A model generated the notes under the pieces. It ran no database searches. It was not told where the DNA came from and was given only the letters and a program-made list of their open reading frames with translations. From Chthoniobacteraceae bacterium (lineage in GTDB: Bacteria; Verrucomicrobiota; Verrucomicrobiia; Chthoniobacterales; Chthoniobacteraceae), in assembly GCA_031409335.1 (NCBI GenBank), contig JANNWY010000247.1, positions 1-10,599 of the forward strand: a DNA stretch of 10,599 nt, given 5' to 3'. This document shows, one piece after another, positions 1 through 10,599 of the stretch. The translations under genes and the position numbers were made by a program. Every line of letters starts with the position of its first letter. Position 1 is the stretch's first letter.

Positions 1-68
1 TTCGATCCGGGTCCGCGACCGAATAATAATGGGCCGAATGCTTGAAAAAACGGAGTGATGTTAGGCAT
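1..68 (-). CDS. Probable IS4-family transposase, N-terminal 22 codons (partial, continues beyond the left edge)
   Basis: ATG at 68-66 reads MPNITPFFQAFGPLLFGRGPGS and is open to the window edge. Its position just inside the IR is where a transposase start is expected. Too short for domain-level confirmation. Confidence 0.6.
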   Translation of the reverse strand, partial: MPNITPFFQAFGPLLFGRGPGS

Positions 69-123
69 ACTTACTTACCATTAACCACCCAGCGACATTA
101 GCAGCTTTTTATCCGCAATTGCC

Positions 124-141
124 CTTAACTTAATGCCATTC
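124..141. repeat. IS terminal inverted repeat (IRL), 18 bp
   Basis: CTTAACTTAATGCCATTC, 18/18 reverse-complement match to 10461-10478. Confidence 0.9.
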
Positions 142-257
142 CGATCTGACCCCTCGCTCTCACTGTTCCAGTTCTCGCGACGCTTCCATTCCGGGGTGGA
201 TGTCTTTGCCTCCCGGTGATCGCGTGGTAGTACTTGCCTCCCCGAAAACACAAGCGA

Positions 258-842
258 ATGAAACGCATCATCATCCATCTGACTCTCGCGGCGCTCTTCC
301 TCACTGGGGCGAGCCGTCTCCATGCGCAGAACCTCGTAACGAACGGCGGGTTTGAGAGTGGATTGACCGGATGGAGCAATAACACCAGCGGCGGTGCCAG
401 TGCGTCCTTCTCGGTGGAGACTTCAGAGCCTTATGCCGGCGCGAAAGCGATGGAAATTGCCGTCACCAATCCCGGCACCCAGCTTCATAACGTGCAGACC
501 CTCGGCCCCACTTTCGCTCTCGCCGTGGGCACTTCGACCACGATCACCTTTCGCGCACGCGCCACGACACCCGGGGTCAAAGTGCGCTTTGTGATGCAGA
601 ACAATACCTATAACAACAGGGAGTTCACACTCTCCACCGCGTGGGAGCGTTTCACCTGGCATCATACCACCACGGAGACCAGCCCGCGCCTTCGCATTCA
701 GTATCGCTCGGCGGGGACTGTTTGGCTCGATGAAATCTCGGCCGTGGCCAATCCCGCACCGGGGACCGGCATTCTTATTTCTTCCGATACCTCGATCCGG
801 CATCAGACTATTGACGGCATCGGCGGCGCGCTCACGTGGTAA
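258..842 (+). CDS. 5' part of the split gene: signal peptide + CBM4/9-type carbohydrate-binding module + first GH30 strand
   Basis: ATG 258 precedes a Sec-type signal peptide. NLVTNGGFESGLTGW ... LSTAWERF ... TVWLDEIS is a typical CBM4/9 pattern. Ends at the premature TAA. Confidence 0.6.
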   Translation: MKRIIIHLTLAALFLTGASRLHAQNLVTNGGFESGLTGWSNNTSGGASASFSVETSEPYAGAKAMEIAVTNPGTQLHNVQTLGPTFALAVGTSTTITFRARATTPGVKVRFVMQNNTYNNREFTLSTAWERFTWHHTTTETSPRLRIQYRSAGTVWLDEISAVANPAPGTGILISSDTSIRHQTIDGIGGALTW

Positions 843-851
843 GCCAGCCGG

Positions 852-2327
852 ATGATTTCCAGTCCGCACAAGGATGAACTGGAGGCGATGATTTTCGACG
901 ATCTCGGCCTTGATATCATCCGCCTCAAAAACTGGTATTTCCCCGCGGATTACCCGACCAACAAATCGCCAAGCAACATCCCCACGGCAAATGGCTACCA
1001 AGGAGCCTACAATAACAACAAAACATTCTACGACATGGCGAAGGAGAATGGCCGCGACATCAAAGTCCTCCTCTCCTCTTGGAGTCCGCCCGCAAATCTC
1101 AAAACAAACAACGACCTCCAAAACGGCGGCACCTTGAAAAAGGTCAACGGACAATACGTCTATGCCGACCTTGCCCAATACTGGGTCGATCTGCTCGACA
1201 ACTCGAATTGGACGCCCGACTACCTCAGTTTCCAAAACGAGCCGGGCTGGGTGGCAGCACACGAGACGTGCGATTTTGCCCCCACGCAGACCACGAGCCT
1301 CGCTGGCTACGCCGAATCTCTGGACGCCATTCACAACCGCATCAAGACTCGTCCGCAGGTGCCGGTTCTCGTCGGCCCGGAATCGGAAAGCATGAACAAG
1401 TTTCTCACCCAGGTCGTGCCGCTCCGCACCAAACCGCATCTCGGCATCAACGCGTTCCACAACTACAACATCGGCGACGCGGCGGGAATCGACGGCGCAA
1501 TCTCGAGTCTCAACCAAATCCGCACCGAGACCACAACCACCGGACGCCCGAACTGGATGTCCGAATTCTCAAAAGGCGAATTCAACTGGCTGGAGACCGC
1601 GAAGGTCATTCACAACACCCTCGTCGAGGCGAACTCCTCGGCCTACATCTTTTGGAAACTCGTCTGGGGAAATTCCACCAACCCCGATGAGATCATTTTC
1701 AACATCGATGGCGCGGGAAACTACGTGAAGGGCGACACCTACTACGCCATCAAGCACTACTCCAAACACATCTCCCGCGGACATCAGCGCTTCGAGGTGA
1801 CAAACTCCGGCACCAACACCAACGTGCGCGCCTCCGGATTCATCAATCCTGCGGGCAACAAACTCACCCTCATCGTCCTCAACACCGGCAGCACCGACGA
1901 TGTGATTTCCCTCCGCTTTCCCGGACTGCCGGTCGCCTCCGCCACCGGTTACCGGACGAGGCAGTACGACGTCGGCGGCTTTCCCTACAAATCGCTTGGC
2001 ACCGTGAATGTCGCCAACGATCAGACGCTGACCAAAAACTCGATCACCACTTTCGTCATCGATCTCGCCGATACGCTCAATCCCTATGACCCGGCACTCT
2101 TGCGCGTGGACGGAATTGCGCACCTTGGCGATCGCGTATCCCTCGCCATCCCCGCGCAGCCCGGCCACGGCTTCATCCTCTGGAAAGCGACCACACTCGC
2201 CGAGAGCTCCTGGCAGAAGGTGACCGATGCAGTCGTCACCGAAACCGACGGCCAGCTTTTCCTCACCGACCCAAACCCCGGCACCACCCGCGCATTCTAC
2301 CGCATCCAGCGCGACACGGACCTGTAA
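852..2327 (+). CDS. 3' part of the split gene: GH30 catalytic and beta-sandwich domains + C-terminal domain
   Basis: LGLDIIRL, SSWSPPANLK, QNEP, WMSEF, YYAIKHYSKHI and SGFINP...LTLIVLN are GH30 motifs. It lacks its own signal peptide and the first strand, so it is probably not an independent gene. Confidence 0.65.
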   Translation: MISSPHKDELEAMIFDDLGLDIIRLKNWYFPADYPTNKSPSNIPTANGYQGAYNNNKTFYDMAKENGRDIKVLLSSWSPPANLKTNNDLQNGGTLKKVNGQYVYADLAQYWVDLLDNSNWTPDYLSFQNEPGWVAAHETCDFAPTQTTSLAGYAESLDAIHNRIKTRPQVPVLVGPESESMNKFLTQVVPLRTKPHLGINAFHNYNIGDAAGIDGAISSLNQIRTETTTTGRPNWMSEFSKGEFNWLETAKVIHNTLVEANSSAYIFWKLVWGNSTNPDEIIFNIDGAGNYVKGDTYYAIKHYSKHISRGHQRFEVTNSGTNTNVRASGFINPAGNKLTLIVLNTGSTDDVISLRFPGLPVASATGYRTRQYDVGGFPYKSLGTVNVANDQTLTKNSITTFVIDLADTLNPYDPALLRVDGIAHLGDRVSLAIPAQPGHGFILWKATTLAESSWQKVTDAVVTETDGQLFLTDPNPGTTRAFYRIQRDTDL

Positions 2328-2437
2328 AGAAGCCATGTCAAACGCTATCATGTCCACCTCGTCAGGAAGAAGGCGGGATCAGGTTAGAAGTCAGAATTCT
2401 AACTCGCAAAACTGCCGATTCGGAAAGCAAAAAATTC

Positions 2438-2491
2438 AGCAAAAAGGGGTCGCTTCTACAGCAAAAAGGTGAGCAAAAAGGGGTCGCTTCT
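2438..2491 (+). repeat. 20-bp perfect direct repeat AGCAAAAAGGGGTCGCTTCT x2, with partial copies
   Basis: Full copies at 2438-2457 and 2472-2491. Partial AGCAAAAAGG at 2460-2469 and AGCAAAAA at 2426-2433. Confidence 0.9.
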
Positions 2492-2529
2492 GGAATTTCG
2501 CTTCGGTGTTTGCGGCGGCAGCACTGCGA

Positions 2530-2733
2530 TCACCCCAAATTCTTCCGCACGACCTGATGAGCCGATCGGTGAGTGTGCCGGCCTCGCGGATCTCCGCGCC
2601 GATCCGCCCGGCGAAGGCCGCAACGTCTCGATTCTCCGTGCAAACGATGATGCCTGGAGGAGTGACATCGTTTGCTGAAGCCGCTGGAAGTCCTGACGAT
2701 TGATGGTGAGCACGCAGCGATGTGAAGGGGCAA
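2530..2733 (-). pseudogene. Remnant (C-terminal half) of a DUF5615-family PIN-like protein with two frameshifts
   Basis: Joining three minus-strand frames gives HRCVLTINRQDFQRLQ / NDVTPPGIIVCTENRDVAAFAGRIGAEIREAGTLTDRLI / VVRKNLG*. This matches the R-x-VLT-x-NRxDF-xRL...GIIVCT...LIRV pattern I recognise for DUF5615 PIN-like proteins. The N-terminal half is absent. Confidence 0.65.
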
Positions 2734-2734
2734 C

Positions 2735-2810
2735 GGGGTCAGGTAGAAAGTCGCTCACAACAATGAAATCTTTTGGCGGCGAAGCCGCGGACGACTTTTC
2801 TACCTGACCC
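2735..2810. repeat. Palindromic mini-element (REP/REPIN- or MITE-like), about 76 bp
   Basis: GGGTCAGGTAGAAA (2736-2749) pairs perfectly with TTTCTACCTGACCC (2797-2810) and extends by GTCG/CGAC after a 1-nt bulge. Internal hairpin GCGGC-GAA-GCCGC at 2776-2788. Confidence 0.8.
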
Positions 2811-2818
2811 TCTGTTCC

Positions 2819-4729
2819 TCACTGGGTTTGATCAAAGGTGAGCGTGGTTTTCTGTGCGCCGCTTTCGATGGTGATGGGCACTTTCTTCGCGCGGGTTTCG
2901 TGCGGCGAATACGCGATCCGGAGATCGTAGCGGCCTGACTTTGGAGCTTTGAAACGGAACGTGGCGATGGAGTGGCCGTCGCCGCGTTTGTCGTCGTGGA
3001 CGTAGCCGGTGCCTATGTAGGGCTTGAACCCGCTGCTGGGTTTCCATTCGCCTTCCAGCGTGGCTTGCTGGTCATCGAGGACGATGCCGGGGAGCTTCGC
3101 AGGGGCGATGTTCATCGCTCCTTTTTGCTCGGGCGATGGCGCGGCGAGCACGGGGATTTCGAGCACTTGCTTCTGCGCCAGCAGACGTTCGCGCAGCGCG
3201 GGATAGGGCAGCTTCTGCACGGTCACGTTTTGCTTTGCAGCGAGTGCGGCGGCGACACCGGCGCTCTGGCCGAGGATCATCCACGTCGGCTCCACGCGGA
3301 TCGAGGAGATGCCCACATGCGTGCAGGAGAGCGCGACGGGAACGAGCAGGTTTTCACATTCGGCAGCCAGCGGCAGGATGCTGCGATACGGGATGTGATA
3401 GGCATAGCCGTGGCCACGACCGGGTATCCGCACCGGCATGATCGTGCCTTCATCGACGACGCCGTCCTTCGTCGCGACGCGCTGGCAGTCGTGCGAGTCG
3501 ATGGGGAATGACGAGACGACGATGGGGTCCTCCTTTTGCGGACTCTCCATGATGTCCTTCTGGCTGACGACAAACATGCCCTTCATGCGCCGGCCTTCGC
3601 GGACGTAGAGTTGCGGCGACCAGTGTCCGTAGCTGGCGAATTCATCGCGACAAAGGCCAAGTTCCGCGTGCTCCCTTCGCAGCGCCTCGGGCACCGCGGG
3701 GTCGGTGCAGAAAAAGTGATACAACTCCAAGGTGTATTGCTTGTGCGCTTCCCAGATCTTCGCGCGGCCTGCTTCGTCGGCCTCACTCCAGCCGTTGCAT
3801 GCGCCGACGAGGCCCATGGAGAACTGGCGCCCGATGCCATTGTTCGCATCAAACTTGCCGCCGGGGAGCGGATACAGATCCCACATCGCGACGGCCTTTC
3901 CTTTTGCAAAATAGCGCCGGATGACCTCGAAGCGCGCCGCGTCGTAGTGCGTCGGCGCGGGGAATGGCACGCGGTTCGCCGGGTCTTTCGTGAGGCAAAG
4001 CCGGAAGCTATAGACCATCACGTTCTTGTCGCCCGCATCCTCGGGGCCGGCGTCGTCCGTGGTGATGAGCGGTAGCAGTTTGCCCGCATCATCACGGCCC
4101 GAAATGCGCATCAGCGGCTTCGGGTAACGCGTCCCGGCGAGCGATTCGCCGAACTCCTTCCGCCCCTCGCGTCCGATGGTCCACGACACGCCCGCCGCCG
4201 CCATGAGATCGCCCTCGTAGCTGCAATCGATGAACACCTTCGCGCTGAAATCACCATCGCTGGTCCGCAGCCGCGTGATACGCGCGCCTTCCTTCGTGAC
4301 CGACTTCAGCGCGCGCTTCGTCAGCACCTGCACCTTCGCTTCATCGAGCATCTGCCTCGTGATCCGCATGGCCACGCCCGGCTCATACGTCCAGTGCTTC
4401 TGATCCTTTTCGCTGACCTTGTAAGGCAGTTTGACTCCGCGCGACGTGTAGTCCGCTTCGATGCGGGTATGCCATTCATCAAAGAGCCCCATCACCGTGC
4501 TGCGCACCGTCTGATTCGAGTCGCTGAAACACAGCCCGCCCGTATTCACCCCGCCGACATGATCCGTCGGCTCCAGCAGAATCACCGAAGCCCCCTCGCG
4601 CGCTGCAGCGATCGCCGCGCAGAAACCGCCCGGCGTGGAGCCATAGATGATTACATCCGCTTCTGCGGCGTGAAGCGCGGTCAGCGGAGCAAGCAGCAAG
4701 GCTATGAGGCAGGCAATGGGCGTTTTCAT
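2819..4729 (-). CDS. Secreted FAD-dependent oxidoreductase (FAD_oxidored type) with a xanthan-lyase/golvesin-like C-terminal carbohydrate-binding domain, probably C-terminally truncated
   Basis: Signal peptide, then DVIIYGSTPGGFCAAIAAAREG dinucleotide fold, FIDCSYEGDLMAAAGV, LYVREGRRM, YHIPYRSILP and SIRVEPTWMILGQSAG. The C-domain GIVLDD...GYVHDD...YSPHETRA ends abruptly at FDQTQ*. ATGA overlap with the upstream sulfatase (4726-4729). Confidence 0.9.
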   Translation of the reverse strand: MKTPIACLIALLLAPLTALHAAEADVIIYGSTPGGFCAAIAAAREGASVILLEPTDHVGGVNTGGLCFSDSNQTVRSTVMGLFDEWHTRIEADYTSRGVKLPYKVSEKDQKHWTYEPGVAMRITRQMLDEAKVQVLTKRALKSVTKEGARITRLRTSDGDFSAKVFIDCSYEGDLMAAAGVSWTIGREGRKEFGESLAGTRYPKPLMRISGRDDAGKLLPLITTDDAGPEDAGDKNVMVYSFRLCLTKDPANRVPFPAPTHYDAARFEVIRRYFAKGKAVAMWDLYPLPGGKFDANNGIGRQFSMGLVGACNGWSEADEAGRAKIWEAHKQYTLELYHFFCTDPAVPEALRREHAELGLCRDEFASYGHWSPQLYVREGRRMKGMFVVSQKDIMESPQKEDPIVVSSFPIDSHDCQRVATKDGVVDEGTIMPVRIPGRGHGYAYHIPYRSILPLAAECENLLVPVALSCTHVGISSIRVEPTWMILGQSAGVAAALAAKQNVTVQKLPYPALRERLLAQKQVLEIPVLAAPSPEQKGAMNIAPAKLPGIVLDDQQATLEGEWKPSSGFKPYIGTGYVHDDKRGDGHSIATFRFKAPKSGRYDLRIAYSPHETRAKKVPITIESGAQKTTLTFDQTQ

Positions 4730-6105
4730 GGCGATGCAGTCTTGGGCTTCCAGTGAGCGTCGAGTTTCGCGCGGAGTTCGGTAACAATTTCCAGGTGCGT
4801 GCTGGCGATGTTGGTCTCCTCATCTGGATCGGTTTCCAGATCATAGAGCATGGGCTTTGCGGATTGAAGCGTGGTTTCCAGCTCGGGAACCTGATACTTG
4901 TCGGGCGGAATTGTGTTCAGTACGCCTTCCGCTTCAAAGGTGCGTGGAAGAATCAGACGCCAGCGCCCGTCGGTGACCCAGCGCCACATGATATTCGCCG
5001 CCGGATCGTCCAGTGTTTGCGAGCGGATGGTGTAGTCTTCGCCAAACACATGCTTCCGCGATTCGACGGCTTTGGCGTCGAGCAAATTGACACCCCTTGC
5101 GCCTTGAGGTGCCGGTTTTCCGAGTGCGGCGAGCACCGTGGGCACGATGTCAACGGAGGATGCCAGGAAGTCCGACTTTGCGGGCGTGACGCGAGCGGGC
5201 CAGCGCACCAAAATTGGCGTTCGATGTCCCGCGTCAAACGGCGTAGTTTTGTTCTTGGGGGCGAACCATGCCACGGTCGGGGACTGAATCCAGCCATTGT
5301 CGGCCAGATAAATGACGATGGTGTTTTCGGCGAGCTTCTCGCGTTCAAGATGGTCGAGCAGTTCGCCGCAAGTTTCATCGAACCACTCGCACATGGCCCA
5401 GTAGCGAGCGATGTGGGGAGAGTCGGTTTTCGCAGCATACTTCTCGAACAGACGGTCCGGCGGCGTGTGCGGTGTATGCGGCATCATGGGCGCATACCAC
5501 ACGAAGAAGGGCTTATGCTGTTTGCGAGAATCGGCGATGAAGTCATAGATCGGCTTCAAACCCTGCCTACCAATGGCGAGCCCTCCGTCGCCGTGGCGAC
5601 TGCCCTGAGTCATGCCGTGCGTGAAGCCGCCGCGCGAGTAGTCGCCATGCCACCATTTGCCAGTTTGAAAGCTAAGGTAGCCCTCGCTTGCAAGCAGGCG
5701 CGGCAGCGTGGGCACTTTATCGAGCATGGCATTCCACTGCGCGGTGAGTTCGGGGGTGGAACCCCGTCCGCCTTTGGAATTGGCTTTAGCGCCTGGAGGC
5801 AACGGCGGGTCATTGGCTGTGACCTTGTGCTGATGCGGATAAAGCCCGGTGACCAGGCTCGCAAGACTGGGACAGCACACGCTGCTGGGGACAAACCCGC
5901 GAGGAAACGCAAGGCTCTGAGCCGCAAGCTTGTCGATGTGCGGCGTCTGAAGATGAGGATGCCGCATGAAGCCGTAGTCTCCGGCTCCCTGGTCGTCGGA
6001 AATGATGAAGACGATATTGGGTTTGGCCGGTGGCTTGGGTGCATCGGCAGCGTGAAGCGTCCCCAGCGGCGTGAGCAGCAGGGCAAAGATGAGCAGGTAT
6101 TTCAT
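4726..6105 (-). CDS. Secreted sulfatase (S1, formylglycine-type fold) with atypical CCPSL active-site motif
   Basis: KPNIVFIISDDQG, TPHIDKLA, CCPSLASLVTGLYPHQH, GKWW, NTIVIYLADNG and LYDLETDPDEETNIA. ATG 6105 precedes the signal peptide MKYLLIFALLLTPLGTLHA. Alternative start is GTG 6156, overlapping the upstream stop. Confidence 0.9.
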   Translation of the reverse strand: MKYLLIFALLLTPLGTLHAADAPKPPAKPNIVFIISDDQGAGDYGFMRHPHLQTPHIDKLAAQSLAFPRGFVPSSVCCPSLASLVTGLYPHQHKVTANDPPLPPGAKANSKGGRGSTPELTAQWNAMLDKVPTLPRLLASEGYLSFQTGKWWHGDYSRGGFTHGMTQGSRHGDGGLAIGRQGLKPIYDFIADSRKQHKPFFVWYAPMMPHTPHTPPDRLFEKYAAKTDSPHIARYWAMCEWFDETCGELLDHLEREKLAENTIVIYLADNGWIQSPTVAWFAPKNKTTPFDAGHRTPILVRWPARVTPAKSDFLASSVDIVPTVLAALGKPAPQGARGVNLLDAKAVESRKHVFGEDYTIRSQTLDDPAANIMWRWVTDGRWRLILPRTFEAEGVLNTIPPDKYQVPELETTLQSAKPMLYDLETDPDEETNIASTHLEIVTELRAKLDAHWKPKTASP

Positions 6106-6152
6106 GAGGTAGTTCGTGATGCGTGGGCTCGTGGCAGAGTTTTTTGCGCGAC

Positions 6153-7694
6153 TCACTCGGCCTTCTGCTTGCCTTGGCCCTTTCCTTTTTTCTTCGGAGC
6201 GCCACCGGCTGCGGTTCCGTCGTTCTTGGTCGGCATCGGAGCGTTCACTTCCTTGCGCCAGGCGACGAGGCGGGCGTGGAGTTCCTTCGCCTTGTCCGGC
6301 AGGTCCGAAGCGAGGTTCTTCGTTTCGCCGATGTCCTCGCGGAGATTGTAGAGCTCGAGCTTTCCGTCTTCGAGAAACTCCATGAGTTTCCAGTCGCCCG
6401 CTTGAATCACGCTGACCGGTGTGGTGCGCCAGAGGCCGGGACCGGAACCGAGGTATCCGGGGAAGTGCTGGAAAATAGCGTCGCGCTGGAGCTTCGCTGC
6501 CGGGTCGCGGAGAAGTTTCACAATGCTCTCGCCGTCGAGCACCTGGCGCGGTTTGGGCGCGGAGGCGAGTTCGAGAAAGGTCGGGAATACATCCACGTGA
6601 GCGGTAGGCACGTCGCTCGTGGAGCCGGGCTTCGTCACGCCCGGCCAGCGGACGATGAACGGCTCACGGGTGCCACCTTCGTAGAGGCTGCCTTTGCCGC
6701 TGCGCAGCGGGGTGTTGTCGGTGATGTCCCCGCCGTCTTCATCGTCGGCTGTTTTCCTCTTGGCCTTGCTCTCCTTGCCCGGCTCGCGGATGAGGCCGTC
6801 GGGACGGTCGTAACCGCCCACGCCGCCGTTGTCGCTGGTGAAGATGAGCACGGTGTTGTCGGCGAGTTTCAAATCATCGAGCGTCTTCATCACTCGGCCC
6901 ACACTGTCGTCCACGCTGGCGATCATCGCGGCGTAGGTCGGATTATTGTGACCGCCGACGCCAGGCTTCGGTTTGAACTTCGCGACAAGATCGGCCTTCG
7001 CTTGATGCGGCGAATGCACCCCGAAATGCGGGAGGTAGAGGAAGAACGGTTCGTCCTTGTGGCGTGTGATGAAGTCCACCGCCTTGTCGGTGAGAAAGTC
7101 GGCGAGGTATTGGCCCTTTGGATAATCGGTCTTTGGATTCGTGGCGAAATTGAAGTGGACGCCCGCGCTCACGATCGCTTCGTCGAAGCCGCGCTTGCCC
7201 GGCGCAAACTCGCCGCGTTCGCCAATGTGCCATTTGCCAAACATTCCCGTCGCGTAACCGCCGGCCTTGAGCTGCTTCGCAATGATGTCGCGGTCGAGCG
7301 GGAGTTCGGTGACGTTGTCCACGGGCCGCAGCGGACGCGAACTCCAGTCAAACCGACCGATGCCACCGACGGTATAAAGGCCGGTGCGCGCGCCGTATTG
7401 CCCGCTCAACAAAGCCGCGCGAGTCGGCGTGCAATTTTGACAGTGGTGATGGCTCAGGAGCTTCATGCCCTGCGCCGCGAGCCGGTCAATATTCGGCGTC
7501 TCGTAGTATTTGCTGCCGTAGGTCGCGGTGTCCGTCCACCCGAGATCATCTGCCATGATGAAGATGATGTTCGGCTTGGCAGCAGCGTGAAACGTGGTCA
7601 GCGGTGCAAGCAGCAGAGCCGAGAAAAGCGTCACAGCCCGCCAGGAAAATTGCAATGAGACGCGGGCAATGTTGAGAGTAGAGAGGTGCTTCAT
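6153..7694 (-). CDS. Secreted arylsulfatase-like S1 sulfatase (canonical CxPxR)
   Basis: KPNIIFIMADDLGW, YETPNIDRLA, CTPTRAALLSGQY, GKWHIG, FTSDNGG, GKGSLYEGGTREP and ELYNLREDIGETKNLA. N-terminal signal peptide and Lys-rich tail. Confidence 0.95.
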   Translation of the reverse strand: MKHLSTLNIARVSLQFSWRAVTLFSALLLAPLTTFHAAAKPNIIFIMADDLGWTDTATYGSKYYETPNIDRLAAQGMKLLSHHHCQNCTPTRAALLSGQYGARTGLYTVGGIGRFDWSSRPLRPVDNVTELPLDRDIIAKQLKAGGYATGMFGKWHIGERGEFAPGKRGFDEAIVSAGVHFNFATNPKTDYPKGQYLADFLTDKAVDFITRHKDEPFFLYLPHFGVHSPHQAKADLVAKFKPKPGVGGHNNPTYAAMIASVDDSVGRVMKTLDDLKLADNTVLIFTSDNGGVGGYDRPDGLIREPGKESKAKRKTADDEDGGDITDNTPLRSGKGSLYEGGTREPFIVRWPGVTKPGSTSDVPTAHVDVFPTFLELASAPKPRQVLDGESIVKLLRDPAAKLQRDAIFQHFPGYLGSGPGLWRTTPVSVIQAGDWKLMEFLEDGKLELYNLREDIGETKNLASDLPDKAKELHARLVAWRKEVNAPMPTKNDGTAAGGAPKKKGKGQGKQKAE

Positions 7695-7853
7695 GGATTA
7701 GAGAATACTGAAGGCGTCGGAGGTTGAGCGAGTTTTCCCTCACGCGAAATCAGCCGTCAGCACCGCGAAGCGTTTCCTTGCCTTGTCCGGCTCAAGCGTA
7801 ACGACACCCGTCTTCCTACAGCGCGCGTTTCCAATTGCTCTCAAACCCGTGAA

Positions 7854-7882
7854 TTGACGCACCGCAGGACTTCAGGCATGTT
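7854..7882 (+). promoter_or_regulatory. Putative sigma70 promoter of the toxin-antitoxin pair
   Basis: TTGACG (7854-7859), 17-nt spacer, CATGTT (7877-7882), directly upstream of the antitoxin ORF. Motif match only. Confidence 0.4.
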
Positions 7883-7897
7883 CCAACGGTTAGCACG

Positions 7898-8083
7898 TTG
7901 ATTGAAATCGAAAAGGCTATCGAGACGCTGCCTGCGGCGGAGATAGATCAGCTTGCCGTCTGGATCGCTCACCGCCATGCACAGCGGCGTTCGTGGCCGG
8001 TGCCACCGCCGCAGGTGGAGCGCAAGGAACTCGACCGAATTGAGGCGGAGATTGAGGCGGAGTTTCCGACCCTTTCCCGATAA
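7898..8083 (+). CDS. Putative antitoxin (VapB-like small protein)
   Basis: About 61-aa acidic helical protein (IEIEKAIETLPAAEIDQLAVWI) ending 3 nt before the PIN toxin gene. The start codon is uncertain (TTG 7898). Confidence 0.7.
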   Translation: MIEIEKAIETLPAAEIDQLAVWIAHRHAQRRSWPVPPPQVERKELDRIEAEIEAEFPTLSR

Positions 8084-8086
8084 CCA

Positions 8087-8464
8087 ATGTTGCTCGATAC
8101 CAATGCGATTTCTGCCAGGGCGAAGGACGATCCTGCGCTGCTGCAGGCGTTGCGCCCGGATCGGACATGGTTTCTCCCGAGTATCGCTTTAGGGGAGTAT
8201 CGTTACGGGCTTTTGAAATCGACGATGAGGGTGGAGTTGGAGGCTTGGCTGGAATCGATCGAAACGGCGTGTGTGGTATTGGCGGCAGATGGTGGGACCG
8301 CGGTGCACTACGCTGCGCTGCGGCGCTCGCTCGACGAGGAGCGCAGGGAGATTCCTTACCATGATATTTGGATCGGTGCGCTCGCGCTTCAGCACAATCT
8401 GAGCGTGGTGAGCCGGGATGCGCACTTTGATAAGCTGCCCGGGGTGACGCGCATCGGCTGGTGA
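8087..8464 (+). CDS. vapC: Type II toxin-antitoxin VapC-family PIN-domain ribonuclease
   Basis: 125 aa with the four acidic PIN residues: MLLDTN, IALGE, PYHDIWIGALALQH and SRDAHF. Confidence 0.92.
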   Translation: MLLDTNAISARAKDDPALLQALRPDRTWFLPSIALGEYRYGLLKSTMRVELEAWLESIETACVVLAADGGTAVHYAALRRSLDEERREIPYHDIWIGALALQHNLSVVSRDAHFDKLPGVTRIGW

Positions 8465-8501
8465 TGAGCGCGGCAGGATATTATTGGCGATAAACCGACG
8501 A

Positions 8502-8535
8502 TAGCCGATTAACTCCTTTTCTTTGTAGTCGGTTA
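8502..8535. terminator. Possible stem-loop between the convergent vapC and beta-helix genes
   Basis: TAGCCGATTA (8502-8511) pairs with TAGTCGGTTA (8526-8535) over 10 bp, including two G-U pairs on the + transcript, with a 14-nt loop. No U-tract follows, so terminator function is uncertain. Confidence 0.3.
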
Positions 8536-8539
8536 ACCG

Positions 8540-10186
8540 TCAGTCGCACCCCAGAAACTTGATGTCCTGGGTCGTGGCTTCGTCAATGTCCGTGAATTGG
8601 CGCTTGTTCTCCTCCGTCACGCACACGCCGCCGATCTTCAGGTTTTTCACCGTGATGTTCTTCACGTAAAACGTGCCGCCACCCACCACGGCATTGGTCG
8701 CGCCGCTGATGCCACCCTTCGCAAACTGCCGGTCCACTGTCACGTTCTCCACCCGGATGTCGCCTACATCACCCAGCTTGGATTTGTCCGGCAGCGGCTT
8801 CCCCAGTAACTGCCCTTTCTCCGTGCGCGGATGCAGGTTGAACAGTCCCGGAACGCTGCCCTCGATCCGTATGTCACGCAGCACGGTGGTCGGACCGGTG
8901 GGATGGAAGTCAAAATTGTTCTGCCCCATCACGAGGCCGTTGTTGTTTTGCATGCTGACCCATTCGGGGTTGATGAGGTCGATGTTCTGCAACACCGAGC
9001 CGCCGAGTTTGTAGCTGCCCCAGCCGAAGGTCAGCACCGCGCCGTTGTGCCCCGGCCACAACACCATGTTCCGCACGTCGAGTTCGTAGTTGTAGAAGAA
9101 GTCGTCCGCGCAGCGCATGAAGCAGTTGCGAATCTTCGTCCGGCTGTTCGGGCGGAAGCCGTCGTTGTTCCAATGCCAGCCGAGGAATTTCAAATCCTCA
9201 TAAACGCAATCCTTTCCGCTGACCGCGCCGTGCAACGGCGATTCCATGATCAGGATACCCTGGAGTTGCGCACGGTCGCCCAGGCTGATGATGCTGCGCC
9301 GGTCCTTGATGCTTTTGTGCCAGATGTATTGCCGTCCGCTCAGGATGCCGCGCCCGTAAATTTTCTGATCGTTGCCGGCATAATGAATGTGCGCCTCCAG
9401 AAACGCCCCACCCGCGAGATACACCGACTGCCCGTCGCGGATGATGAGCTTGCCCTCGTCTTCAATGCTGCCGGGCTTTTGCACGCCCTTGAGATTGTAA
9501 TGACCCGGCGGGAAAAAGATCACCTTTGCGTCATTCAACACCTTCGCCTCCACCTGCGGACGGTAAACCACCACGCCCGGCGCGTTGGTGTCCGGCACGT
9601 CCGTCTCCTTGGGATCAACGAACACGCACAGCATGTGCTTGATCCAGCCATGGGAAACGGTGTGATTGTCCTCCGTGTCAAAGTCCACCGACACATAGCG
9701 GTTCGCATTCGTGATCTGGAATGACTCCCGGCCACCCTGTTTCACGTCGGGCAAAAGTCCGTAGCTGCGTGGCGCGAGGGTGATCTTGTCAGTGGCCGTG
9801 CCAAAAATCTTCTCCACCCGAAACGTCAAGGCCTTGCCGCGGGCCGGATCATAGCTCACTTGCGCGAATGAGAACGTGCGCCCCTTCAAATCCGCCGCTT
9901 CGCCGTCCACGTATTCGCCGCCCTCGTAAATTGCGTCGCTGCGCAGCGCGGTCAGTTCGCGCTCCTCGCCCGCGCCGAGCTTCACCCAGACGCGATAATG
10001 CTCGGACTTCATCGCCTCCCCTGGCGCGGTCGGCCACTCGTAACTGACCAATTGCGCATTCGCATGAATGCCCAAGCCCATCAGCAGCAAGGAAAGAAAA
10101 AGTCCCGACAGCCGCGACCGATGGCGACCACCAGGGCAAGCTGTCCACCGCTGCCCAATTCGAGAGGACTGGTTATTCGTTTTCAT
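8540..10186 (-). CDS. Secreted right-handed beta-helix glycoside hydrolase, GH49 (dextranase)/GH28-like
   Basis: Signal peptide (...LLLMGLGIHANA). Motifs IFFPPGHY, VYLAGGAFL, KIYGRGILSG, WHWNNDGF and FMRCADD. The NDG...DD acidic triad is typical of clan GH-N enzymes. C-terminal beta-helix repeats DIRVENVTV and NITVKNLKIGG. Confidence 0.8.
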   Translation of the reverse strand: MKTNNQSSRIGQRWTACPGGRHRSRLSGLFLSLLLMGLGIHANAQLVSYEWPTAPGEAMKSEHYRVWVKLGAGEERELTALRSDAIYEGGEYVDGEAADLKGRTFSFAQVSYDPARGKALTFRVEKIFGTATDKITLAPRSYGLLPDVKQGGRESFQITNANRYVSVDFDTEDNHTVSHGWIKHMLCVFVDPKETDVPDTNAPGVVVYRPQVEAKVLNDAKVIFFPPGHYNLKGVQKPGSIEDEGKLIIRDGQSVYLAGGAFLEAHIHYAGNDQKIYGRGILSGRQYIWHKSIKDRRSIISLGDRAQLQGILIMESPLHGAVSGKDCVYEDLKFLGWHWNNDGFRPNSRTKIRNCFMRCADDFFYNYELDVRNMVLWPGHNGAVLTFGWGSYKLGGSVLQNIDLINPEWVSMQNNNGLVMGQNNFDFHPTGPTTVLRDIRIEGSVPGLFNLHPRTEKGQLLGKPLPDKSKLGDVGDIRVENVTVDRQFAKGGISGATNAVVGGGTFYVKNITVKNLKIGGVCVTEENKRQFTDIDEATTQDIKFLGCD

Positions 10187-10216
10187 TTGTTTGTTATTGT
10201 CTGCGATGGCTTGGAT

Positions 10217-10366
10217 TCAGGGTGAAACATCAATGACGATGCGTCGGTAGTCGTAGAGCGGAACAATCGCGCTGGTGTCACGCACTTCGAGAATCAAATG
10301 CACCTGCCGGCCGGCAGCGTCCGGCGGAACAGTCCACGCCACGTGCGCCGTTTCCGCTCCCCGCAA
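10217..10366 (-). pseudogene. 3' remnant of a DUF1593/Sde182-type (nucleoside hydrolase-like) gene, C-terminal beta-sandwich only
   Basis: Minus frame reads LRGAETAHVAWTVPPDAAGRQVHLILEVRDTSAIVPLYDYRRIVIDVSP*, matching the VP-x-DA-x-G-x-x-IH-x-ILEV-x-D...YRR C-terminus I recognise for DUF1593 proteins. The upstream sequence does not resemble that family and there is no ATG. Confidence 0.7.
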
Positions 10367-10460
10367 TTTCTGTCTGTCTGCTAGGAAATTGCTTTCGCGC
10401 CCGCCGCACCGGGGACTGTCAGAACTCGGGCAGGCTTCGGGGAGTGAGGGGGTCTGCTCA

Positions 10461-10478
10461 GAATGGCATTAAGTTAAG
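10461..10478. repeat. IS terminal inverted repeat (IRR), 18 bp
   Basis: GAATGGCATTAAGTTAAG, exact reverse complement of 124-141. Confidence 0.9.
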
Positions 10479-10599
10479 CGTCCTTTTGGATAAGTATGCG
10501 TGGCCGGTTTCGATGGGGTGGAACACGCATCTCCGCTCTTGGCTTGGTTAGTAAGTGATAGTTCTTCGCGCGGCGCTTCTTTGCGCGCGGTTCGCTGCG
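10474..10599 (-). CDS. IS4-family transposase, C-terminal 41 aa (partial)
   Basis: RSEPRAKKRRAKNYHLLTKPRAEMRVPPHRNRPRILIQKDA*. The R-x-EPR-x-x-KRR-x-K-x-Y-x-LL-x-KPR tail is characteristic of IS4-subgroup transposases. Confidence 0.8.
   Translation of the reverse strand, partial: RSEPRAKKRRAKNYHLLTKPRAEMRVPPHRNRPRILIQKDA

Follow-up and report, generated by a model that had tools for sequence, protein, structure and literature searches.

Background

IS231A, an insertion sequence (IS) of the IS4 family (IS231 subgroup) from Bacillus thuringiensis, is known for A/T-rich arms around its target, for target bending and for a preference for the terminal repeats of transposon Tn4430. Its 11-bp target-site duplication and its target motif GGGNNNNNCCC are given in Table 1 of PMC2577343. 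In this study we analysed the complete contig C247 (10,599 nt, hereafter the window) of the genome assembly G000 of a Chthoniobacteraceae bacterium (326 contigs, 7.94 Mb), both ends of which are formed by an IS with 18-bp terminal inverted repeats (IRs). A first-pass annotation of the window had noticed the hexamer GGGGTC at a distance of 6 nt from each IR and had proposed that the IS recognises a GGGGTC-N6 site belonging to a dispersed host repeat family. The results presented below assign the element to the IS4 subgroup of the IS4 family, and in its target rule it works like IS231A. The effect is real but ordinary: the odd motif at a fixed distance is the textbook signature of the outer edge of a target-site duplication, and no new kind of system is revealed.

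Other described elements provide further points of comparison. Table 1 of PMC2266710 lists the IS4 subgroup with ends of the form -AATR--------WTW, a length of 1400-1650 bp and direct repeats (DRs) of 10-13 bp, and a passage of the same paper speaks of "spectacular apparent insertion specificity" in some of its members. According to a passage of PMC1525189, insertion of ISRm22, also of the IS4 family, is restricted to repetitive extragenic palindromes (REPs); it shares with IS1397, ISKpn1, ISPpu9/10 and IS621 a fixed position in short dispersed extragenic repeats. In view of these two papers, the statement of the first-pass annotation that the pairing of IS and repeat cannot be placed in a named system was too strong.

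IS junctions in the genome

The two junctions of the window lie where they had been reported. On the left, the IR ends at 141 and is followed by CGATCT (142-147) and then by GACCCC (148-153); on the right, GGGGTC (10449-10454) is followed by TGCTCA (10455-10460), and the IR begins at 10461. The hexamer and its complement occur eight times in the window against 2.4 expected from the genome-wide frequency, and the further positions reported in the 2328-2818 region (GGGGTC at 2446, 2480 and 2735, GACCC at 2806 and the degenerate GGGATC at 2375) are correct as well. The two IS ends had been described as those of one insertion, a view that we had to give up. Positions 1-141 and 10461-10599 differ past the shared 18 nt and therefore represent the two different ends, B and A, of one element, and the two flanking copies have the same orientation. 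The window is the DNA between two separate copies collapsed in the assembly, and not a segment bounded by the two ends of a single element.

The exact 18-mer of the IR occurs 13 times in the assembly, 12 times at no more than about 141 nt from the end of a contig and once in the interior of contig C88, where it belongs to an old truncated copy. As found by blastn, end A terminates seven contigs (100% identity) and end B five (at least 99.3%). We infer that a multi-copy IS was collapsed by the assembler and that its interior of about 1.5 kb fell below the size cut (the smallest contig has 1520 nt) or out of the bin. An IS4 transposase gene on C227 was considered as the missing interior and was rejected, as it encodes a different transposase with 38% identity.

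The flanks at the 12 contig-end junctions fall into two classes (a slash marks the IS border). The class GGGGTC-N6/IR comprises four junctions (C5, C324 and both of C247), and the class GACCC/IR comprises five (C22, C35, C46, C120 and C145), to which the remaining three are near matches (C66 TGCCCC, C69 TGTCCC and C319 AGACCT). With a background of 1.1e-4 per position and strand, the binomial probability of GGGGTC lying exactly at offset 6 in 4 of 12 junctions is 8e-14; for GACCC abutting the IR in 5 of 12 it is 6e-14. When the junctions are merged into inferred insertions, an exact GACCC stands at one edge of the duplication in 7 out of 10 (P = 4e-19). The pentamer is rare in this genome: it occurs 9573 times, whereas the median of 5-mers with an equal composition is 27288. 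Other pentamers with GGG or CCC runs (AGGGG, ACCCC, GGACC and others) are, like GACCC, rarer than other words of their composition by a factor of about 3.

The relation between the two classes is given by two pairs of contigs. The flank ...AAAGCTGACCC/end A of C35 pairs with end B/AAAGCTGACCCC... of C324, and ...CGGACCGACCC/end B of C46 pairs with end A/CGGACCGACCCC... of C5. Each pair forms a perfect 11-bp direct repeat that ends in GACCC, while the outer flanks are unrelated and unique. It follows that the motif at offset 6 marks the distal end of the target-site duplication. The six bases between motif and IR are AGATCG, TGCTCA, AGCTTT and GGTCCG beside identical IS copies of this one genome, so that N6 is target DNA and not part of the IS. 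This agrees with the remark of the first-pass annotation that the spacer is not part of the IR, but the GGGGTC-N6 formula survives only as a target preference, because N6 forms part of the 11-bp duplication and follows no spacer rule. The motif stands beside end A in six of the inferred insertions and beside end B in four, and thus there is no orientation rule. Two outcomes had been named in advance as speaking against target recognition, namely other copies lacking the motif at offset 6 and 12 invariant nucleotides beside each IR; other copies do show the motif, and the 12 flanking nucleotides vary.

Two contigs of other bins (L051 and L053) carry identical IS ends, with flanks that are absent from G000. 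The L051 flank would pair with either C145 or C120, an ambiguity which arises because the sites in the repeat R1 (described below) share one 11-mer. Searches for an empty site in four congeners returned no match to the left flank (142-900) in any of them and matched the right flank through the repeat R3 only, and no empty-site contig was present among the matches listed from public contig-level run data over the window. In the public runs, the IS and repeat bins have a word depth that is raised about 10-fold, a value in which all organisms are pooled and which does not give a copy number. The single public record across the left junction has just 30 nt on the IS side and was not counted as bridging.

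Target preference in other genomes

When one genome per species was scanned, the exact 18-mer turned up at no fewer than 111 loci of many phyla; the matches listed include Planctomycetota, Verrucomicrobiota, Nostoc, delta- and gamma-proteobacteria, Entotheonella and others. From the matches listed, 116 unique external flanks were obtained. CCC occupies positions -3 to -1 in 30 of them and GGG positions -11 to -9 in 27, while the other registers give counts of 0-5, except for position -12, which reflects the extra G of GGGG; both halves are present in two flanks. The pooled column consensus is AAAGGGGTCAGACCC/IR, that is, AAAG GGGTC A GACCC followed by the IR, a palindrome that spans exactly 11 bp and has the GGG-N5-CCC form of the IS231A target. 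Together with the probabilities for the 12 junctions, this in-register consensus upholds the earlier proposal that the target is chosen by sequence.

Among the matches listed there are 46 external copies with both ends, and 26 of these are flanked by a direct repeat of 10-13 bp with at most one mismatch (11 bp in 21 copies, 12 bp in four and 10 bp in one). The 21 external 11-bp repeats and the two from G000, oriented by the better half, which by design inflates the counts of the last three positions, give NNNN-C-T-G-A-C-C-C, with an A-rich arm on the left and, on the right, C and then a T-rich arm. In G000 usually just one half-site is present.

Some genomes reuse a longer flank. In a metagenome-assembled genome (MAG) of the Tepidisphaeraceae, copies (L022, L033, L085, L090) share the flank TCGGCGTA[CG]CTC as a 12-bp repeat at three sites, and in a delta-proteobacterial MAG the copies (L021, L025, L028, L079, L092, L096) share GGGGACGCTACC or its complement. 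The presence of one long flank per genome suggests lineage-specific extended targets.

Family placement and relatives

The ORF at end B would begin with an ATG at 68 and run on the minus strand towards position 1, encoding MPNITPFFQAFGPLLFGRGPGS. The window and the rest of G000 hold only these first 22 codons, and the single-ORF DDE_Tnp_1 feature is seen in relatives with identical 18-bp ends. Proteins of 459-478 aa inside such ends match PF01609 (DDE_Tnp_1) and NCBIfam NF033592 "IS4 family transposase" with up to 215 bits (cut-off 115). Among the loci listed, the interiors between the 18-mer ends are unrelated, and many of the other loci are MITE-like (miniature inverted-repeat transposable element) derivatives of 80-400 bp or solo ends adjoining ordinary genes.

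A metagenome scan with a pattern from the N-terminal codons gave no match; a second pattern gave ten loci, including the closest full copy (L134). This copy is 1551 bp long and shares 87% identity with the window in end A and 76% in end B, and its transposase of 489 aa is identical in its first 22 residues to the peptide encoded by window positions 68-3. It matches PF01609 with 95 bits and PF13006 (Nterm_IS4) marginally, with 25.3 bits at a cut-off of 25; PF13006 is annotated (precomputed) for many homologues. The protein family is large, 7360 of the 8000 scored candidates having E values of up to 1e-20, and one of these proteins is named "IS4 family transposase [Chthoniobacteraceae bacterium]". 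The YREK signature Y-(2)-R-(3)-E-(6)-K was present in all six transposases of relatives that were checked, e.g. YAQRWEVELHFHQIK in L134.

In the terminus GAATGGCATTAAGTTAAG, positions 2-5 are AATG and positions 14-16 are TTA, as in the IS4-subgroup signature, and the full relatives (1410-1551 bp) and the 11-bp DR lie within the ranges of the subgroup. The duplication also falls within the 8-13 bp, or about one helical turn, of the IS4 family. We therefore assign the element to the IS4 family, IS4 subgroup, in agreement with the family named in the first-pass annotation, its own transposase being predicted from the 22 residues and the relatives. A literature text search with a 17-mer of the terminus returned no paper, and no described member with these ends or this target was found in print.

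In 41 related genomes, end A is present in two, counting G000; the other is G016, of a related genus, in which a diverged IS end (L002, C5:209084-212149) is interrupted by an IS66-type element with a GTAAGCG terminus, whose IS66-like transposase ORF was recognised by eye. On contig 40 of the cultured Chthoniobacter flavus Ellin428 there is a MITE of 218 bp (1507-1724; L015) whose 18-bp ends are exact and whose 11-bp repeat, TCGCCTGACCC, is perfect; the strain would be a convenient experimental organism.

Comparison with known systems

The element and IS231A have in common the 11-bp duplication and the palindromic GGG-N5-CCC target, and the preference of IS231A for the ends of Tn4430 is paralleled here by insertions at the tips of the repeats R1 and R2. 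The two differ in their phyla and in that a single half-site (GACCC plus a C/T-rich arm) is usually enough here. Their ends differ too, with CAT-------AA--TAA for the IS231 subgroup in Table 1 of PMC2266710 and GAATGG...TTAAG here. With Escherichia coli IS4 and its subgroup (De Palmenaer et al. 2008), the element shares the end signature and the DR and, to judge by its relatives, would also share the size and a single-ORF DDE transposase with YREK and Nterm_IS4. Tn5/IS50 and Tn10/IS10 are of the same family and follow the same logic, with a symmetric consensus over the staggered cut and G/C at the ends of the duplication, but their duplications are 9 bp long and their consensus sequences (AGNTYWRANCT and GNNGCTNAGCNNC) are others. 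In contrast to the REP-targeting elements, only about half of the insertions here lie in repeats, and the repeats concerned, whether MITE-like or of another short kind, are distinct from the REPs at the side of the RAYT (REP-associated tyrosine transposase) genes of G000; IS1397 and IS621 belong, moreover, to other families with other chemistry.

We consider it likely, with a probability of about 0.85, that this IS4-subgroup element, about 1.55 kb long to judge by L134, duplicates 11 bp on insertion and that its transposase prefers (A-rich)-GGGTC-N-GACCC-(T-rich), one good half-site being enough. After insertion, one junction would read N6-GACCC/IR and the other IR/N6-GACCC, the latter appearing as GGGTC-N6/IR when read inward. 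The window would show this second kind of junction for both of its copies, and hence GGGGTC stands 6 nt from each end; the expected missing partners would be ...CGATCTGACCC/end A and ...TGAGCAGACCC/end B. The preference may, as an analogy to IS231A suggests, be exerted by the complex of transposase and IS ends on bent target DNA. The tips of R1, R2 and R3 would be frequent sites because they carry the preferred sequence in intergenic DNA.

Several observations weigh against this explanation. The IS interior was not found by blastn in any contig of G000, and the transposase of the resident IS is known only from its 22 N-terminal residues and from relatives. Pairing is possible for only 2 of about 10 insertions, and the partners of both window junctions are missing from the assembly, so that their 11-bp duplications are assigned by reasoning from the other copies. 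The L053 flank does not conform to the target rule. Of the 116 external flanks, 61 have neither half in register, which makes the preference statistical and different between lineages, and a clean repeat is missing from 20 of the 46 external copies with both ends. Among these 20, the three elements L028, L036 and L106 have 11-nt flanks that are inverted rather than direct (10 of 11 positions matching); the simple duplication model does not explain them, and recombination between copies in like repeats could have produced them. Finally, the flank pattern comes from resident insertions alone, and post-insertion selection could contribute to it.

If the explanation holds, a testable rule (11 bp, GGGTC-N-GACCC, A/T-rich arms) becomes available for a very widespread, undescribed clade of the IS4 subgroup in Verrucomicrobiota, Planctomycetota and other phyla. 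It would account for the contig breaks of this MAG at the IS sites and predicts that further copies are intergenic and often on MITE tips. It would also extend the rule of IS231A to a second subgroup of the family, a hint that the rule predates both subgroups.

Alternative explanations and host repeats

One alternative starts from the same cross-phylum clade with its invariant 18-bp terminus. Its members would home with base precision to the tips of unrelated MITEs and short repeats that start with GGGTC[A/G]G, and the locked lineage targets of 12-20 bp and the inverted 11-mers would point to a mode of target capture beyond the palindromic hot-spot model, e.g. one that recognises DNA with a hairpin or tip structure, or the end of a different element. 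We regard this as unlikely, though not so unlikely as to be passed over.

A second alternative, which we think is rather improbable, is a co-evolved system of IS and host repeat, in which the IS recognises a dispersed family (REP- or REPIN-like, i.e. resembling REP doublets that form hairpins, and perhaps RAYT-linked) and GGGGTC is only the visible part of a longer target. Since at least one match at E 0.05 is uninformative (about 45% everywhere), at least five other genomic copies were taken as the baseline for a repeat. By this measure 5 of the 12 junction flanks are repetitive, compared with 17-20 of 400 motif-matched or random sites (about 4.5%), and carrying the motif does not in general make a site more repetitive than a random one. 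The share of IS copies in repeats exceeds what would be expected from the bare motif. The multi-copy repeats R1 and R2 hold 4 of the 10 inferred insertions and R3 holds one.

R1 (yTTTTGCACATATGCACGGACyGACCCyTTT; GCACRTATGCACGGACYGACCC) is present in 13-18 copies in G000; of 41 related genomes, 6 contain it, and the controls gave no match. It also stands next to a related IS on an unrelated contig from a metagenome (L133). Three R1 copies are occupied by the IS (C46/C5, C120 and C145), a fourth on C33 abuts a 56-nt IS remnant, and where the IS occupies R1 the duplicated sequence consists of the outermost 11 nt of this repeat. In the congener G003, three inverted R1 pairs 136 nt apart form a MITE of about 158 bp with the tips GGGTCAGTCCGTGC.... 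On C295 (about 1460-1545, minus strand), an 81-bp MITE with IS4-type ends and no visible duplication separates the 11-mer GGGTCAGTCCG from the remainder of an R1-like repeat. R2 (GGGGTCAGyTTTAGAA...) holds the C35/C324 insertion, and its unit in the window folds as DNA with -24.2 kcal/mol (z = -5.6). R3, on which the right junction of the window lies, has copies in G000 (twice on C294, once on C55) and in the congeners G003 and G004; contigs from public runs have loose ends at its start (10378), and the right IS begins 4 nt past its end. It is located about 190-270 nt upstream of a 548-aa ORF and has no Rfam match. A search of G000 for an autonomous element bounded by inverted termini of the GGGTCNG type gave just four pairs.

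These findings, the long targets reused in the Tepidisphaeraceae and delta-proteobacterial genomes and the reported restriction of ISRm22 to REPs favour a repeat system. Against it, five to six of the ten insertions, with the left junction of the window among them, are in unique DNA, N6 varies between copies, and other lineages with the same ends show a loose consensus only. The repeat enrichment may itself reflect the purging of genic insertions, a longer optimal site carried by R1, or both; at 11 of the 13 junctions the insertion does not interrupt any ORF of 120 aa or more. The dispersed host repeat family of the first-pass annotation thus applies to the insertions in R1, R2 and R3 and fails for the others. 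The outward similarity of the flanks that it had described is real on the right, where the flank is R3; the left flank has no other copy.

A third alternative, to which we give very little weight, takes GGGGTC-N6 as the outer part of the element's own 30-bp IR (GGGGTC...TAAG). Ends of the Tn3 family likewise have the form GGGG...TAAG, with a length of 38 bp and 5-bp DRs. The inverted, near-perfect 11-12-nt flanks of L028, L036 and L106, the 11-mer GGGTCAGTCCG at the tips of R1-type repeats and the recurrence of an A-rich plus GGGG[T/A]C flank across phyla would fit such an IR. However, N6 differs between identical copies in one genome, GGGGTC is missing from offset 6 at 8 of 12 junctions, and the flanks of 26 of the 46 two-ended copies are direct, not inverted, repeats of variable sequence; with its variable N6, its eight junctions lacking the motif and DRs of 11 bp, the element was rejected as having Tn3-type ends. 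Chance or base composition alone has next to no probability, for although the window itself shows just two junctions, P is about 1e-13 or lower over the 12, words of the GACCC type are under-represented in G000, and the signal is register-specific in the 116 external flanks.

Y1 transposase genes

G000 has 11 matches to PF01797. R1, R2 and R3 were not found beside two genes of classical RAYT size (C83 and C229), the flanks of which carry other, GC-rich hairpins without GGGGTC. A RAYT link was rejected for the classical RAYTs, and the neighbouring RAYT gene suggested by the first-pass annotation as a check gave no support to a repeat system. A larger type of Y1 gene, found on C53 and C88, is preceded by AAAGGGACA repeats resembling the target. 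On C88 (L126:706-2064), the truncated old IS (IR plus about 60 transposase codons) is followed by two GGTAAAACAAAGGGACA repeats and then by a 364-aa IS200-like (PF01797) gene. The gene on C53 is of the same type and has the same upstream repeats, an unrelated MAG contig (L086) shows the arrangement of C88 with the other IS end, and a related IS (L137) abuts a AAAGGGACA-type repeat. That these repeats of the larger Y1 genes are tied to the IS target is suggestive only, an observation and not a link.

Other features of the window

The coordinates of the features are listed in Table 1. An Rfam search of the window gave no match at E up to 0.1.

Table 1. Features of the window (C247, 10,599 nt)
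Feature	Position	Strand	Basis or remark
IS copy 1, end B (transposase-proximal, "left")	1..141	-	cut by contig end; BLAST match, 22-aa N-terminus
IR, 18 bp, CTTAACTTAATGCCATTC as written, GAATGGCATTAAGTTAAG read inward	124..141	-	fits IS4-subgroup end signature
Putative 11-bp target-site duplication copy CGATCTGACCC of IS copy 1	142..152	.	from 2 paired insertions in G000 and 21 external 11-bp repeats
32-nt repeat, two copies in tandem, AAAAAGGGGTCGCTTCT in each	2426..2491	+	within the 2328-2818 region
75-bp palindromic MITE-like R2 unit, tips GGGTCAGGTAGAAA / TTTCTACCTGACCC	2736..2810	.	14-nt perfect inverted arms; related copies elsewhere in the genome
R3, 79-nt dispersed conserved repeat, CTGCTAGGAAATTGC...GGGGAGTGAGGGGGTCTG	10378..10456	.	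copies in G000 and congeners
Putative 11-bp target-site duplication copy GGGTCTGCTCA of IS copy 2	10450..10460	.	same reasoning as for 142..152
IS copy 2, end A (transposase-distal, "right")	10461..10599	-	18-bp IR GAATGGCATTAAGTTAAG at 10461-10478; cut by contig end

The interior of the window contains CBM4_9 and GH30-like ORFs, a gene for an FAD oxidoreductase, two sulfatase genes and the 548-aa ORF, which has no Pfam match. The CBM4_9 ORF (234-842) and the GH30-like ORF (852-2327) are in the same frame with one TAA (840-842) between them, and 234-2327 may be a CBM-GH30 gene interrupted by a nonsense codon.

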